Assembly: GCA_037441385.1 (NCBI GenBank)
Contig: JBBISH010000114.1
Coordinates: 1-20,732 of the forward strand
DNA: 20,732 nt
Direction of reading: 5' to 3'
DNA from: Myxococcales bacterium
Lineage (GTDB): Bacteria; Myxococcota_A; UBA9042
Shown here: positions 2,554 through 20,144 of the stretch, one piece after another
How positions within the stretch are numbered: position 1 is the first letter of the stretch
Layout of the letters: every line of letters starts with the position of its first letter
The notes under the pieces: model-generated
Seen by the model: only the letters and a program-made list of their open reading frames with translations
What the model was told of the DNA's origin: nothing
Database searches by the model: none
Program-made: the position numbers and the translations under genes

Positions 2554-3621
2554 ATGAAGTACCTACCCGCTGTGATCACGTTCGTGTTGTCGGCAAGCCT
2601 GGTGGCTGCGATCGGCGCGGGCGCCGAGCCGCCGGCCAAAGACAAGAAGCCTGCCCCCGCGGCGCCGCACAAGTCCGTCTCGGTGGCGCCCGTCAAGGGA
2701 ACCGCGGTGTCGAGCCACGGGCCGTACGAGGCCGGCGACTGCAGCCTGTGCCACCAGGGCAAAGACCTCAAGAACCCAGGCCCCGTTGCGGGGCCCATCA
2801 ACAAGGTGTGCTTCTCGTGCCACGAGGACATGCAAGACTTGATGGGCAAAGCGAAAGTCAGGCACCGCATCGCCGAAGAAGCCTGTACCAACTGCCACAA
2901 CCCGCACAACTCGATGAGCCGCAAACTGCTGCACGCCGATGTGCCGACCATGTGCCTGGACTGCCACGCCAACGTGAAGACGGCGATCGGCGCGAGCGTC
3001 AAGCACGAGGCCATGACCACGGGGCGCGGCTGCATGAATTGCCACAACCCGCACGCGTCGAACGTGGAGCACATGCTGACACGCCTGCCGTTTGACCAGT
3101 GCGTGGGCTGTCACGACAAGGACGACGTGGTCGATTCTGCGGGCAAGCCCCTGACCAACTACAAGAAATTGCTCGCCGAGAACCCGGTGCACCACGCCCC
3201 CGTGGCGGGCAAGGACTGCTCGAGCTGCCACCAGCCCCACGGCAGCGAGAATTTTAGACTGCTAGTGGCGCCCTACCCGGCGCAGTTCTATTCGCCTTTC
3301 GATCCAGCCAAGTACGCGCTCTGCTTTACCTGCCATGACGACAAGATGGTGACCGCGGCCGAGACGACCACCGCGACGCGCTTCCGCGACGGGTCGCGAA
3401 ACCTGCACTTCGTCCACGTCAACAACCCCAGCCGCGGTCGGACCTGCCGAGCGTGCCACGAAGTCCACGCTTCCAAGCAGCCTTTCCAGGTGCGCGACGG
3501 CGTGCCGTTTGGCCCCAAAGGCTGGATCTTGAAAGTGAACTTCAAGGCCAACCCCGACGGCGGCACCTGCGACAAGACCTGTCACACGGCCAAGAGCTAC
3601 GTCAACACCGTCAAGAAATAG
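2554..3621 (+). CDS. periplasmic multiheme cytochrome c, 9 CxxCH + 1 CxxxCH (about 10 hemes)
   Basis: Signal peptide, RBS GAGGAG; CSLCH, CFSCH, CTNCH, CLDCH, CMNCH, CVGCH, CSSCH, CFTCH, CRACH, terminal CDKTCH; repeated CHxPH motifs and FRDGxRNLH. Confidence 0.92.
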   Translation: MKYLPAVITFVLSASLVAAIGAGAEPPAKDKKPAPAAPHKSVSVAPVKGTAVSSHGPYEAGDCSLCHQGKDLKNPGPVAGPINKVCFSCHEDMQDLMGKAKVRHRIAEEACTNCHNPHNSMSRKLLHADVPTMCLDCHANVKTAIGASVKHEAMTTGRGCMNCHNPHASNVEHMLTRLPFDQCVGCHDKDDVVDSAGKPLTNYKKLLAENPVHHAPVAGKDCSSCHQPHGSENFRLLVAPYPAQFYSPFDPAKYALCFTCHDDKMVTAAETTTATRFRDGSRNLHFVHVNNPSRGRTCRACHEVHASKQPFQVRDGVPFGPKGWILKVNFKANPDGGTCDKTCHTAKSYVNTVKK

Positions 3622-3635
3622 CCAGGAGGCAAAAG

Positions 3636-4460
3636 ATGCTGCGCAATTTGAAGTTTCTGTTGCTGGCGGCGGCGGTGGCGGCCTGGCATGTCCCGGTCGA
3701 CGCTTCGAGCCGGACGCCGATCGGGCAAGTGATCGAGAACCCAGACCTGCCCAAGGTGGGCGGCGGCAAAATCAAGGCTTGGGGCGACGCGACCGCCAAT
3801 GTGATGGTGTTTTTTCGGCCCGGCCAAGAACACTCGCAGGTCGTGCTGAAGGAGTTGGCCAGCTTGGAGCGCGACTTGAACGGCAAGTCGATCCGCTGGG
3901 CAGGGATCGTCTCCGATCGCTACAAGGCTGATGAAATTCTTGCAGATCTCAAGACCGCGGATGCCAAGTTCAACGTAGGGCTCGACGCGGACGACGCCTA
4001 CTACTCGAGCCTGGGCCTGACCCTGATGCCCGAGGTTGCGCTGGTGGCCAAGAACGGCAAGCTCTTGAAAGTCATTCCGTTTGCCAAGGTGAACTACCGC
4101 GAGATGATCAAGGCAGAACTGCGGTTTGTCTTGGGCGAGATCAGCGAGGCTGAACTGCAGGCCGCGCTCAACCCGGATGCTCCGGTGGCCAAAGCGGAGC
4201 ACTCGACGGCTCGCCGCCACATCAAGATGGCCGAGCTGATGCTGAACTCCGGCAACGTCGACAAGGCGTTGGAGTCGGCCAAGACCGCCGTCCAGCAAGC
4301 GCCGGATCTTGCGGCAGCGCATAGCGTTTTGGGCGCGTGTCTGGCCGCCAAGGGCGACTGCAAGGCGGCGATCGCGGCGTTTGACGAGGCGCTGAAACTG
4401 GACAAAGCCGACTCGCGCGCGCTGGAAGGCAAGAAGACCTGCGCAGACAAGGCCAAGTAG
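3636..4460 (+). CDS. exported protein with redoxin/thioredoxin-like fold (no CxxC) and C-terminal TPR repeats
   Basis: RBS AGGAGG, signal peptide, AhpC/TSA-like pattern (VMVFFRPGQEHS...LGLTLMPEVALVAKNGKL), TPR helices (ALESAKTAVQQAPDLAAAHSVLG...AIAAFDEALKLD). Confidence 0.75.
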   Translation: MLRNLKFLLLAAAVAAWHVPVDASSRTPIGQVIENPDLPKVGGGKIKAWGDATANVMVFFRPGQEHSQVVLKELASLERDLNGKSIRWAGIVSDRYKADEILADLKTADAKFNVGLDADDAYYSSLGLTLMPEVALVAKNGKLLKVIPFAKVNYREMIKAELRFVLGEISEAELQAALNPDAPVAKAEHSTARRHIKMAELMLNSGNVDKALESAKTAVQQAPDLAAAHSVLGACLAAKGDCKAAIAAFDEALKLDKADSRALEGKKTCADKAK

Positions 4461-15908: not shown

Positions 15909-16697
15909 ATGAACCCAACCTTGATCCTTGGCTGCGCCGCTGTCTTGGCCCTCAGCGCGTGTGGCAGCTCCACCAGTAGCAACGCCACCACCCCCGATAG
16001 CACCAGTGGCGACAGCAGCTTGAGCGACGCCGCCGCCGACGCCAGCGGCCAAGACACCGGCAGCGCCGACGCCAAACAAGATGCCCTGCCCGACAGCGCC
16101 AGCGACGGCAGCTCTGCAGATACCACCCCAGCGGATACCGCCACCGGCGACACGGCAGTGGCCGACAGCACCCAAGCGGACACCAGCGACACGGCCGCCG
16201 TAGACACCAGCACCGACGTGGCCAGCGACAGTGCTGCGGACGCCACCGACGCCAGCCTGCCCGAGGGCGCATGCACGGACGAACAACCTTGCACTAAGCC
16301 CAGTTGGGCGTCGTGCGCCCCGGCCGGCAGCTTCATGGGCTGCGGCATCTGCCAAAAGGAAGTGCCGGGCTGCAGCAGCGACGCCGAGTGCGCGAGCACC
16401 GCCAACGGCATCTGCATTGCGTCGCCGAACGACTGCCTGTGCGAACCGCACCCAGTCTGCCACGCCGGCTGCGCCGCCAACAGCGAGTGCGGCGAAGGCC
16501 AGGTGTGTGCCAGCGACCACCACTGCGTCAGCAAGACCTGCGCCGCCAAGGCCGACTGCCCGTCGATGTTCGACTGTGGCAGCGACGGCAAATGCGCACG
16601 TCGACTCTGCAAGGCCAGCGGCGAGTGCGGCGGCGGCTTCTGCGTGACCGGCCTGTGCTGGGTCAAGCCGGGCGAGTGCCAGTTGCCGGTACCGTAG
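15909..16697 (+). CDS. cysteine-rich repeat lipoprotein with Asp/Ser/Thr/Ala linker
   Basis: Lipobox LSAC, about 100-aa acidic linker, then 24 Cys in C-x5-C-x4/5-C-x4/5-C style repeats; RBS GAGG. Confidence 0.85.
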   Translation: MNPTLILGCAAVLALSACGSSTSSNATTPDSTSGDSSLSDAAADASGQDTGSADAKQDALPDSASDGSSADTTPADTATGDTAVADSTQADTSDTAAVDTSTDVASDSAADATDASLPEGACTDEQPCTKPSWASCAPAGSFMGCGICQKEVPGCSSDAECASTANGICIASPNDCLCEPHPVCHAGCAANSECGEGQVCASDHHCVSKTCAAKADCPSMFDCGSDGKCARRLCKASGECGGGFCVTGLCWVKPGECQLPVP

Positions 16698-16781: not shown

Positions 16782-16809
16782 TTGCCCGGCGTCGTCGGCC
16801 GTCTAGCAT
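16782..16809 (+). promoter_or_regulatory. candidate promoter for the precursor/radical SAM pair
   Basis: TTGCCC-16-TAGCAT, 37 nt before ATG 16847. Confidence 0.4.
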
Positions 16810-16846
16810 GGGTCGACCGCGTGCTACTCACGCACGGAGACCTGCG

Positions 16847-17290
16847 ATGGCAGAGACTTCGACTCCTCGCCGCTCGGTGTTGCTGCGCGGCGCATCGGTG
16901 CTGGCCGGCAGTTGGCTGGCCGTCCGGACCGGCGCCGTCTTGGGCCTGGGCGCCCTGATCGATGCCTGTGGCGCTCCGGAGCGCGCCAACAAGTATGGCG
17001 GCCCGCCCATGGAGCCCGAGCCGGCCAAGTACGGTGGGCCGGTCCAGCCAGAGGGGCCGCAGGAATCCCCAGGCGGTGGCGAGAAATACGGTGGTCCTCC
17101 AGGGGGCCCGGCCGAAGCCGACGCGCCCAAGCCGGAAGAGATGGCCAAGAAGCGGCCGCCCAGGCCTGCCAAGTACGGCGGGCCGCCGCCCAAACCGGCC
17201 CCGCCCAGGCCAGATCCGCCCAAGCCCAAGTACGGTGGACCGCCGCAAGCCGACAAGTATGGTGGTCCGCCCAGCCGGGATGATTTGTAG
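16847..17290 (+). CDS. putative radical-SAM-modified precursor: Tat-type lipoprotein with six KYGGP repeats
   Basis: RBS GGAGA; 147 aa; PRRSVLL twin-arginine-like motif, hydrophobic stretch, LIDAC41G lipobox-like site; KYGGP at K49, K61, K80, K109, K128, K137; stop overlaps the next start (TAGTG). Confidence 0.85.
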   Translation: MAETSTPRRSVLLRGASVLAGSWLAVRTGAVLGLGALIDACGAPERANKYGGPPMEPEPAKYGGPVQPEGPQESPGGGEKYGGPPGGPAEADAPKPEEMAKKRPPRPAKYGGPPPKPAPPRPDPPKPKYGGPPQADKYGGPPSRDDL

Positions 17291-18426
17291 TGGCGGCGCT
17301 TGACGTTCTCCACCACGATCCGCGCCGGTTCCGCGTGCGCAACTTTGCGCAATTGTTGCGCGCCCGCAAGGACGCCCAGGTCCGCCGCGACACGGCCGCG
17401 CAGCCAGACATGACCTATCTGTTCTGGGAATGCACGCGCCGCTGCAACTTGCGCTGTGCCCATTGCGGCTCGTCGTGCGAGGGGCGCTCGCCGGGCCAAG
17501 AGCTGACCACCCAAGAGGTGTGCGACGCGCTGGACACCATTGCCCAGGACTTTGACGCGTCGCGTATTTTCGTGTCGATCACCGGCGGCGAGCCCTTGGT
17601 GCGCAAGGACTTGTACCAAGTGGTGCGGCACATGACCACCTTGGGCATGCGCACCTGCATCGTGAGCAACGGCACCCTGCTGGGCGCCGAGCAGGCCAAG
17701 GCGCTGTACGAAGCCGGCATGCGCACGGCCAGCATCAGCATCGACGGCGATCGCGGCAGCCACGAGGCGGTGCGCGGCGCCGACACCTGGCACAAGTCCG
17801 TGCAGGCCCTGCGCCATGCCCGCGAAGCTGGCTTTGACACGGTTGAAGCGATCACCTGCGTGCGACCCGCCAACCTAGAGGAATTGCCCAGCCTGGAGGC
17901 GGTGTTCCAAGAGGCCGGCGCGAATCTGTGGCGGCTCATCACCATCGACAAGATGGGCCGGGCCAAAGACGCTGACGCCGAGATTTGGCTGAATCCACCG
18001 CAGATTCGCCGGTTGTTGCAGTTCGTGGCCGATCGCCGGGCCCAGCGACGCCCCGGCGACCTGGGGATCAGCTTCTCGTGCGGCGGGTTCCTGGGCCTGG
18101 AGGTCGAGACGGCCGTGCGCCAGCGCCACAACCAATGCGGGGCCGGGTTGACCGCGGCCTCGATCTTGCACGACGGCAGGGTAAGCGCCTGCCCATCGCT
18201 GCCCGACAGCTGGGCCCAGGGCAGCATCCGCGAGCGCCGATTCTCGGAAATCTGGCGCGATCGCTTCGAGCAGCACCGCAGCTTTGAATGGCGCCGCGCG
18301 GGCGCCTGCGCGGACTGCGATTGGTTTGGAGCGTGCCTGGGCGGCGGCCTGCACGAGCGCCTGGTCCAGCCTGACGATCATTGCTGGCTCGAACGCATCG
18401 GCTGCGGCGTGAACGGCGGCGCATAG
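17290..18426 (+). CDS. radical SAM/SPASM peptide maturase, resembles the rSAM/lipoprotein-system (TIGR04133-like) splicease clade
   Basis: LFWECTRRCNLRCAHCGS (CxxxCxxC), ITGGEPL, SISIDG, MGRA, SCGGFLG, SPASM CGAG...DGRVSACP...CADCDWFGACLGG. Confidence 0.9.
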   Translation: MAALDVLHHDPRRFRVRNFAQLLRARKDAQVRRDTAAQPDMTYLFWECTRRCNLRCAHCGSSCEGRSPGQELTTQEVCDALDTIAQDFDASRIFVSITGGEPLVRKDLYQVVRHMTTLGMRTCIVSNGTLLGAEQAKALYEAGMRTASISIDGDRGSHEAVRGADTWHKSVQALRHAREAGFDTVEAITCVRPANLEELPSLEAVFQEAGANLWRLITIDKMGRAKDADAEIWLNPPQIRRLLQFVADRRAQRRPGDLGISFSCGGFLGLEVETAVRQRHNQCGAGLTAASILHDGRVSACPSLPDSWAQGSIRERRFSEIWRDRFEQHRSFEWRRAGACADCDWFGACLGGGLHERLVQPDDHCWLERIGCGVNGGA

Positions 18427-18581: not shown

Positions 18582-20144
18582 ATGGCGGCAACGGTAGGTC
18601 AACTTGGGCAAATCGCCCGCGCGCCGGCAACCTGGAGTAGGGAGCGGGCCGAGCGGGCTCTGCAGTTGCTGGCGTTGCAGCAGCGCCTTGGCGAGCAACC
18701 CGGCCTGGCGGCGATGCTGGCCCTGCTGGCTGGGGCCTTGGAAGCCCTGCTTCCCGTACGCGATCGCGCCTCGCTGGCGCTGACGGACCAAGACGGTCAG
18801 TCGCTGCGCGTGTATCGACTGCTGCCGGCGCTGGGCGAGTTGCCCGACGAACTGCCGCGGGTCCGCGGCGAAGGCACGGTGGTGGGCGCGGTGGCGCGCG
18901 ACGGCCGGGCGCGGGTCGTGGCCGACGTGCGCAGCGACGATCAGTTGCGATTCGGCCGGGCGTCGCACGACGGGGTCCGCTCGACGGTGTCGGTGCCCGT
19001 GCGCGTCGCCGGTCAGGTGGTGGGTGTGCTCAATGCGGGTTCCAAGACGATTGGCGCCTGCACAGAGGCGATGATCGACGAACTTGCCGAGATTGCTACG
19101 GTCATCGGCCCGGCCCTGTACGCCGCCGAGCGCGCGCTGCATGTGGGCGACGCGGTGGCGGTGCCAGGTCCCATGGCCCCGCTGGCGGCGGAGCTGGTGG
19201 CCGAAAGTCCGGCGATGCGGACGCTGCTGGCCCAGGCGCGGCGGGCCGCGGGCAGCGACGCCACCGTGCTGCTCACCGGCGAGACAGGGGTGGGCAAGTC
19301 GATGCTGGCCAAGGCGATTCACGGCTGGAGCCCGCGCGGAAGTGGGCCCTTTGCGGCGGTCCACGTGGCGGATCTGCCGGCGACGCTGGTGGAGTCGGAG
19401 CTGTTCGGCCACGAGCGCGGCGCCTTTACCGGGGCGACGCAGCGGCGGCTGGGCCGGTTCGAAGTCGCGCGCGGCGGCACGCTGTTCTTGGACGAGATTG
19501 GCGAGGCCCCGCTGCCGGTGCAGTCCAAGCTGCTGCGGGTCACCCAAGACGGTCACTTTGAGCGCGTGGGCGGCAGCGCGACCCTCCACACCGACGCGCG
19601 GTTGATTGCGGCCACGCATCGCGACCTGCACCAAGCGGCCGAGGCGGGTCTGTTCCGCCGCGACCTGCTGTATCGCCTGGAGATCGTGGCACTGCAGGTG
19701 CCGCCCCTGCGCGATCGGCCAGAGGATTTGCTGCCGTTGGCCAGGACGATTCTGCAGCGCTTGGGCCGCCAACATGGACGCAATCTGCGCCTGGCGCCGC
19801 AAGCCGAGGTGCGCCTGCGCGGTCACAGCTGGCCCGGCAACATCCGCGAGTTGGAAGCGGTGTTGACCCGCGCGGCCCTTCTGGAAGAAACCGCAGAATT
19901 GCAGATCAATTCCCTGAGGGGCCATGCCGCGGCACCCACGCAGGCGGCTCGCTACGACTGGCCGACGCGCGACGAGCACGAGCGACGCTACTTGCTGCAG
20001 GTGTTGGCTCACACCGAGGGCCGCATCGAAGGACCGCGCGGGGCCGCGAAATTGCTAGGGATGATGCCCTCGACACTGCGCAGTCGCTGCCAGCGCCTGG
20101 GCGTGTCGCTGCCAAGCGCGCGCCAGGCCAAGGGGACGCCATGA
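18582..20144 (+). CDS. sigma54-dependent enhancer-binding protein, GAF-AAA+-HTH (FhlA/NifA-like)
   Basis: GAF domain, [39 protein letters not shown], FhlA-type [13 protein letters not shown]. Confidence 0.93.

Follow-up and report, generated by a model that had tools for sequence, protein, structure and literature searches.

A candidate splicease encoded beside a KYGGP-repeat lipoprotein precursor in a Myxococcales bacterium

The gene pair and the precursor protein

The 20,732-nucleotide stretch of Myxococcales DNA analyzed here (contig JBBISH010000114.1 of assembly GCA_037441385.1; hereafter the window) contains two adjoining genes on the forward strand. The first (16847–17290, +) encodes a 147-residue precursor protein with a signal resembling those of the twin-arginine translocation (Tat) pathway, a cysteine at position 41 (Cys41), and a Pro/Gly-rich region with six copies of the motif KYGGP. 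The second (17290–18426, +) encodes a radical S-adenosylmethionine (SAM)/SPASM protein of 378 residues, a predicted splicease from a Myxococcota clade that is sister to the clade containing TIGR04133. The TAG stop codon of the precursor gene (17288–17290) shares one base with the GTG start codon of the enzyme gene (17290–17292). A first-pass annotation had described a 147-residue frame with six KYGGP motifs and no other tyrosines, whose stop overlaps the start of a radical SAM/SPASM gene. Translation of 16847–17290 agrees with this description, and the enzyme matches the Pfam models Radical_SAM (82 bits) and SPASM (38.5 bits) above their cut-offs. We consider it likely that the locus is a two-gene system of the spliceotide type with a Tat-lipoprotein as substrate.

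The six KYGGP copies start at residues 49, 61, 80, 109, 128, and 137 and together contain all six tyrosines of the protein. They span residues 49–53 (16991–17005), 61–65 (17027–17041), 80–84 (17084–17098), 109–113 (17171–17185), 128–132 (17228–17242), and 137–141 (17255–17269), all on the plus strand. Their DNA varies at synonymous positions, which argues that the repeats are kept at the protein level. The whole protein contains 32 prolines and 24 glycines, and chance does not readily produce the pattern: none of 200,000 shuffles of residues 42–147 yielded two or more KYGGP, and 1,171 yielded one. Among 70,164 stop-to-stop frames of at least 50 residues in the genome, the window precursor is the only one with two or more [KM]YGG, and the same genome contains no second KYGG-repeat gene. 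The precursor matched no Pfam or NCBIfam family, and the ESM Atlas returned no useful match (best 0.84). The spacers between sites vary freely, being Pro/Lys-rich in the window and Asp-rich in L002, which suggests that selection acts on the signal and the motif.

Residues 1–40 (16847–16966, +) form a predicted twin-arginine lipoprotein signal or leader helix with the sequence PRRSVLL and a long, weakly hydrophobic stretch. Cys41 (16967–16969, +), in the context I-D-A-C, is the predicted lipid-attachment site. We found and aligned 26 relatives of the precursor. The cysteine is aligned in all 26 rows, an Arg-Arg pair lies within the first 25 residues in 24 of them, and five match TIGR01409 weakly (best E 0.0054). 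The window's own genome encodes TatC and signal peptidase II. Export of the precursor as a lipoprotein is, in our view, probable. Of the export signal proposed in the first-pass annotation, PRRSVLL, the hydrophobic stretch, and Cys41 are present; the lipobox is atypical, with a non-canonical Asp at position −2 (Glu in L001, a 92%-identical locus from Myxococcota).

The N-terminal segment could instead be a mere leader or cleavable signal. The cell would then export a soluble protein, or release short ketoamide peptides, with no lipid anchor. Apart from the unusual lipobox, this possibility draws on AxA-type signals (P0130, P0135, P0148, and L043; in three of the 26 relatives such a signal precedes the aligned cysteine and there is no lipobox), on the partner at L016, which has no cysteine, and on a Trp in the hydrophobic stretch, conserved by eye in 21 of the 26 relatives, which suggests a binding role. 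We nevertheless regard it as unlikely, because most relatives have ordinary lipoboxes (LAAC, VAAC, LSAC, LGGC), the TIGR04134 partners of related enzymes are annotated as lipoproteins, and the spacers between sites contain no visible common cleavage motif.

The enzyme, its clade and its partner genes

The enzyme carries the CxxxCxxC radical SAM motif (C52, C56, C59; 17443–17466, +), with cysteines invariant in 44 of 44 sequences, followed by a glycine typical of the clade (G60), which occurs in 41 of 41 rows of the YG clade and in none of seven outgroup rows. Seven cysteines of the auxiliary-cluster region (C264, C283, C301, C340, C343, C349, and C365; 18079–18384, +) are invariant alignment columns; in the CX2CX5CX3C motif the last cysteine is replaced by G353. 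Residues G60, W214, A225, G269, and E273 are shared with all four PlpX-family/GDL rows and are found in at most one of the seven outgroup rows. The signatures LFWECT..CN..C.HCGS, CGGFLG, and DGRVSACPS that had been noticed by eye are indeed present. An AlphaFold2 model (predicted local distance difference test, pLDDT, 90.9) shows a confident radical SAM/SPASM fold. The nearest solved folds are BlsE, SkfB, anSME, SuiB, and PqqE with 17–24% identity. Neither sequence nor fold searches with the enzyme turned up a solved structure of a splicease.

Among hidden Markov models (HMMs) of protein families, TIGR04133 is the best match (280 bits versus a cut-off of 425). TIGR04103, which we take to be the PlpX family IPR026482, gives 129 bits versus 725, and TIGR03913 gives 120 versus 592. 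The models of cofactor-biosynthesis enzymes AhbD, MftC, and PqqE give 142, 133, and 88 bits against cut-offs of 500, 265, and 381, so that the scores with AhbD, MftC, and NirJ2 (132–142 bits) equal or exceed those with TIGR04103 and TIGR03913. Such scores could mean that the enzyme is a cofactor-biosynthesis SPASM protein of the NirJ/AhbD, MftC, PqqE, or anSME type, and the repeat lipoprotein an unrelated neighbor. We find this very improbable: the same scores are far below the models' own cut-offs and half of the TIGR04133 score, grouping with the NirJ, MftC, and Ahb-like rows is rejected by a tree test, and the two genes have a joint, patchy distribution across genomes, as described below.

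A careful tree was made with 48 rows chosen from 120; annotated plasmid loci, their families confirmed, served as reference loci. Seven rows formed the outgroup, among them MftC, NirJ, a pseudo-SAM protein, and three annotated just as radical SAM (one labeled Ahb-like by context). The window clade (support 100/98) has as its sister a group made up of the TIGR04133 members and further lineages from Myxococcota or of Bacteroidota-like and Spirochaete-like character. With that sister group it is united at 100/99, and the whole joins the TIGR04103 (PlpX-family) and GDL enzymes with 100/99 against the outgroup. Forcing the window clade together with the seven outgroup rows was rejected by the approximately unbiased (AU) test (p = 0.0045). 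PqqE and anSME are outside the tree and were compared by HMM score only. In this tree the enzyme falls in the clade that holds the PlpX-family enzymes, apart from the cofactor SPASM enzymes included. The grouping with cofactor enzymes that the first-pass annotation had named as a refuting outcome was not seen in the tree or, for PqqE and anSME, in the HMM scores.

A search with the enzyme matched 1,353 proteins among 6,824 candidates, and the best 120 of these 1,353 are 54–92% identical to it. Because counting motifs from the precursor side is circular (146 of 152 Tyr in YG, 141 preceded by Lys), we counted from the enzyme side, which gave 16 close-clade loci besides the window with duplicates counted once. 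An upstream YG precursor with one to eight sites is present at 13 of the 16; since L002, L006, and L007 are close kin, these 13 loci are not all independent. Among their 65 YG sites, Tyr is preceded by Lys in 60 and by Met in five, and 58 sites read KYGGP. Two of the loci without a precursor, L038 and L042, offer just 51 and 1 nt of upstream sequence. Homologues without a neighboring YG-repeat frame, the other refuting outcome that had been named, are therefore not the pattern of this clade. The distribution of the two genes agrees with this count. Among 401 genomes of the phylum, the enzyme is matched in 46 with an E value no worse than 1e-60, and the precursor profile in ten at 1e-5; the eight genomes with an enzyme of at least 59% identity are the same eight that have precursor matches at E 2e-14 or better. 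The pair thus travels together, patchily across genomes, and no third gene conserved with it was seen across distant close-clade loci among the neighborhoods listed.

Some loci depart from the standard layout. In G339 (enzyme 52% identical) the partner has a single MKYGIQ and no cysteine. Lone Tat-lipoprotein genes with three KYGG each and no adjoining enzyme occur at L141:1411-1803, L142:1183-1803, and L143:1498-1890; the three genomes hold the full pair elsewhere, and these proteins are likely substrates in trans. At L001, L002, L006, L015, and L039, the precursor is read in the same frame as the enzyme, and a single stop codon separates the two, unlike the window pair with its differing frames and one-base overlap. 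This difference indicates that a read-through fusion is not conserved.

Several known systems resemble this one. TIGR04133 is the best HMM for all 44 clade members searched, and TIGR04133/TIGR04134 loci share with the window the pairing of an enzyme gene with a putative lipoprotein gene in the same two-gene layout, a YG after the cysteine of the lipoprotein (EYGSP in L121, SCYGMP in L122), the auxiliary cysteine pattern, and a common clade (100/99). The earlier remark that TIGR04133-type enzymes adjoin lipoprotein genes is borne out by the annotation of their TIGR04134 partners. The window enzyme differs in being 33–34% identical to these enzymes and, at 280 bits, under the 425 cut-off. No TIGR04134 match was found among the 26 window-type precursors (E up to 1), which differ from this family in their Tat-type signal, 2–10 KYGGP repeats, and the absence of a folded C-terminal domain. 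Membership of TIGR04133/TIGR04134 by cut-off was rejected on both counts, enzyme and partner. Scott et al. (2022) reportedly classed TIGR04133-type enzymes of Bacteroidota as type V spliceases, and are said to have included TIGR04133-like, signal-bearing substrates and to have predicted all 20 beta units.

With PlpX, PcpX, and RhaX the window shares the pairing of a SPASM enzyme gene with a gene for an XYG precursor. As in PcpA, the sites are multiple and lie among prolines; as in Rha, the layout is two-component; and the clade residues G60, W214, G269, and E273 are shared. The differences are a sequence identity of only about 30%, a precursor with a signal peptide, Lys as residue X, and another set of auxiliary cysteines. 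A passage of one study equates PlpX with IPR026482 (PMC11002830). Membership of type I (PlpXY) was rejected: the TIGR04103 score is 129 versus 725 bits, the precursor matches no Nif11/NHLP leader family, and no PlpY-like gene lies beside the window pair. The GDL/DUF1843 enzymes of TIGR03913 and their Myxococcota relatives at L145 and L146 fall in the same larger clade and are 30–33% identical to the window enzyme. The partners at L145 and L146 are lipoproteins with repeated xYGGPP/xYGAP, like the repeats of the window, but they start with CxxCxRH...CPFC instead of a twin-arginine signal and their X is mostly hydrophobic. GDL membership was likewise rejected (TIGR03913 120 versus 592 bits; no DUF1843 match in 26 precursors). 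Finally, in the DAG-RiPPs, hybrids between lipoproteins and RiPPs (peptides made on the ribosome and modified after translation), modification in the cytoplasm is followed by export and lipidation, as proposed here, and NedA has three repeated modified motifs (PMC13056109). Unlike the radical SAM enzyme of the window, MNIO iron enzymes modify Cys motifs in those systems, and the terms "radical SAM", "rSAM", "splice", and "Tat" have no occurrence in the main text of that paper.

The wider clade and the gene neighborhood

In the wider clade, an automatic rule found a signal-bearing YG frame beside the enzyme at 76 of 82 loci with at least 600 nt upstream and at 81 of 94 loci overall. By chance this rule fires at about 30% of loci (134/400 and 24/82 in the null sets), and it missed L014, where a two-site precursor is visible. 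Position X ahead of the constant YG is occupied by L, E, C, Y, M, V, or K; a free X with a fixed YG is expected from XYG splicing. Lipoproteins in which LYGPP, MYGPV, YYGPQ, or VYGIW recurs several times, at most eight, are encoded in other lineages of Myxococcota, and KYGPP is also found on other branches (L044, L048). Lipoprotein format and repetition thus appear to be family traits. The first-pass annotation had considered the invariant Lys, the repetition, and the Tat-lipoprotein format unusual. Most of this is not unusual. The window subclade is marked by its twin-arginine signal, near-fixed Lys, and GGP; repetition and lipoprotein format do not distinguish it, since in the wider clade lipoprotein partners are the rule and many have several YG repeats, PcpA has two sites in a Pro-rich context, and multi-site lipoprotein RiPPs have been published.

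Other arrangements were observed in related systems. At 28 of the 94 wider-clade loci the lipobox cysteine directly precedes YG, as in FQACYG, FTACYG, and LTSCYG (29 pattern matches, one judged to be chance); examples are L053, L057, L060, L062, L063, L065, L066, L078, L108, and L122 (upstream). Splicing there would act on the lipid-bearing cysteine itself. At L044, L046, and L047, the proteins of the downstream frames start with a signal peptide and have a membrane helix at the C-terminus, with PMYGVP and VKYGPP in between, which is a third way to anchor the motif. A 604-residue frame at L148:1429-3243 (G339) consists of a splicease-like enzyme, a signal-like stretch, and repeated EYGIP/DYGIP, and is an apparent enzyme–substrate fusion or the result of a lost stop codon.

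A second Myxococcota system is found at L145:3905-7209 (G070) and L146:209-2784 (G300), and also at L144:4187-4813 and P0146. It comprises two to four tandem genes for the CxxCxRH...CPFC lipoproteins with xYGGPP/xYGAP repeats and enzymes 49–55% identical to PlpX-family and GDL enzymes; the GDL enzymes L119 and L124 have a similar CxxC...CPHC segment at the C-terminus. Because the L145 and L146 enzymes, 49–55% identical to the TIGR04103 member, adjoin lipoproteins with MYGGPP, AYGGPP, and LYGGPP, the same core motif appears to be used inside the PlpX-like clade.

In the window, a GGAG ribosome-binding site (16836–16839, +) lies 7 nt 5′ of the ATG of the precursor gene and is kept in L001. The first-pass annotation had assigned the pair its own promoter. 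A consensus scan for promoters and terminators called no site, and a sequencing-run search listed no RNA data set with the locus. What remains is a weak sigma70-type candidate, TTGCCC-N16-TAGCAT (16782–16809, +; 8 of 12 consensus matches), whose hexamer cores are kept in L001 (TTGCAG-N16-TAGCAT) as conserved islands within otherwise diverged DNA, two sequences being compared. Immediately upstream of the pair is a gene for a Cys-rich lipoprotein of myxobacterial type (15909–16697, +; weak TIGR04201 match, 19 bits versus a cut-off of 25), and immediately downstream is a gene for a GAF and sigma54-interaction activator (18582–20144, +), which is retained in L001. Neither looks like a component of the system. 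Farther away (2554–4460, +), a gene for a multiheme cytochrome c with many CxxCH is followed by a thioredoxin-like/TPR gene, with a short CxxCH protein encoded further upstream.

Proposed chemistry and role

The central proposal of the first-pass annotation, a splicease-like enzyme with a YG-repeat lipoprotein as substrate, is supported by phylogeny, conserved pairing, and shared clade-specific residues. Most probably, the enzyme excises a tyramine equivalent at K-Y-G sites. In the proposed pathway, the cytoplasmic enzyme would engage the finished precursor, perhaps via an N-terminal signal helix that replaces a PlpY-type partner, and would remove the tyramine equivalent from some of the sites or from all of them, with a loss of C8H9NO (−135.068 Da) each time. 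Each such site would retain a residue of alpha-keto-beta-amino acid type that carries the side chain of lysine and is followed by Gly-Gly-Pro. Tat export, lipidation at Cys41, and cleavage by signal peptidase II would come after modification; because Tat acts on finished chains, there would be time for splicing before lipidation. The end product would be a disordered, Pro-rich protein that is anchored in the membrane and carries as many as six ketoamides. Binding of the precursor through its leader helix is a tentative element of this scheme. A predicted complex of the enzyme with residues 1–62 scored 0.33 versus 0.00 for the best control, which is weak support and gives no interface; in the benchmark such low passes were given by 18 of 157 solved pairs and by 2 of 215 mismatched ones. 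Contact agreement between runs was at least 59% and partner pLDDT at least 42.

Published precedents fit this scheme in part. Splicease pathways found later are described, in passages on them, as two-component systems without a Y protein, and the published splice motif is YG. According to passages of a supplement, PcpA is spliced at two sites with prolines around them, one of them VQPMYGVV (PMC11414181), which resembles wider-clade sites such as IQPMYGAV (L022). Several points weigh against splicing at the window locus, to which the atypical lipobox and the AxA-type signals may be added as regards anchoring. Some YG motifs of known systems escape splicing, the DYG of RcsA being given as unmodified in a passage of PMC11626197, and literature passages on known systems contained no report of a Lys splice site. 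The auxiliary cysteine set is unlike that of the PlpX family (G353 for Cys, an extra C264), a difference also seen in TIGR04133, and the best HMM score is below cut-off. Identity is 30% to the TIGR04103 member versus 31% to both MftC and the Ahb-like row. In the tree, the PlpX family is represented by L118, a family member and not a characterized splicease; the outgroup is just seven rows, several of them on long branches; and a quick tree of 120 rows did not decide the deeper link to the PlpX/GDL clade. At L040, YG is absent from 330 nt spanning the upstream region and the start of the enzyme gene.

The same enzyme could perform other radical chemistry on the same substrate, in which Tyr is oxidized or cross-linked (Lys-Tyr or Tyr-Tyr, −2.02 Da per link) and repeats are stapled within or between chains. 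The modest identity to the PlpX-family member and the altered auxiliary cysteines would allow this, the cross-linking enzymes SuiB and PqqE are among the nearest solved folds, and Lys before Tyr is nearly fixed in the window subclade. However, a Lys-Tyr link does not predict that the residue before YG is free in sister lineages. What stays invariant is YG, which published work gives as the motif for splicing, and the clade is monophyletic with PlpX-family enzymes. We consider cross-linking distinctly unlikely and prefer tyramine excision.

If splicing occurs, the likeliest role of the product, put forward with some reserve, is to inhibit, from its tether, serine or cysteine proteases specific for Lys, since trypsin-type enzymes cut at the K-Y bond and splicing would replace it by a ketoamide whose P1 residue is Lys. 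According to passages of PMC11626197, peptides inhibit proteases once spliced but not in unspliced form. The ketoamide might also be a reactive handle instead of a protease warhead. The Lys amine might react with the ketone of its own residue to form a cyclic imine with a seven-membered ring (total change −153.08 Da), or Schiff bases might arise between the ketones and amines of neighboring chains or of the envelope to give a cross-linked surface coat. Amine and ketone would indeed be combined in one residue, as chemical reasoning suggests, with many sites on a flexible tether, and no protease or transporter gene was seen to be conserved beside the pair among the neighborhoods listed. On the other hand, X varies widely in the wider clade and includes residues without a nucleophile, and the spliceotides tested in published passages inhibit proteases only when spliced. 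We rate the handle as one of the less probable outcomes.

The chemistry itself is known, and what looks new is the substrate format, not the kind of system. Passages of earlier work record 27 confirmed splicease pairs, and predictions of 939 systems spread over 189 genera (PMC10849128, PMC9811515, PMC10533398, PMC11002830, PMC13756444), and the window clade may be among those 939 already. No description of KYGGP or of a lipoprotein spliceotide was found in the literature searched, which covered few subscription papers. A far-reaching interpretation, which we hold to be rather doubtful as a whole, is that the locus represents the first class of splicease-made, Tat-exported lipoprotein RiPPs. 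Its twin-arginine signal would double as an enzyme-activating helix and its envelope array of lysine ketoamides would trap trypsin-like proteases; the whole TIGR04133-related radiation would equip surface lipoproteins with ketoamides whose P1 residue is tuned from clade to clade, and at 28 of the 94 loci of the wider clade the lipid-bearing Cys itself would apparently be the residue modified, with none of this in print.

If the reaction holds, the enzyme would be a Lys-specific, multi-site splicease with a five-residue motif and no need for a Y protein, which could be of use in protein labeling and ketoamide inhibitor design. Two published themes, tyramine splicing and lipoprotein RiPPs, would be joined in one system, and the DAG-RiPP paper anticipates hybrids beyond MNIO enzymes (PMC13056109). 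The native products and roles of spliceotides are described as elusive in passages on the field; a membrane-anchored, repeat-bearing substrate would offer a tractable way into spliceotide function.

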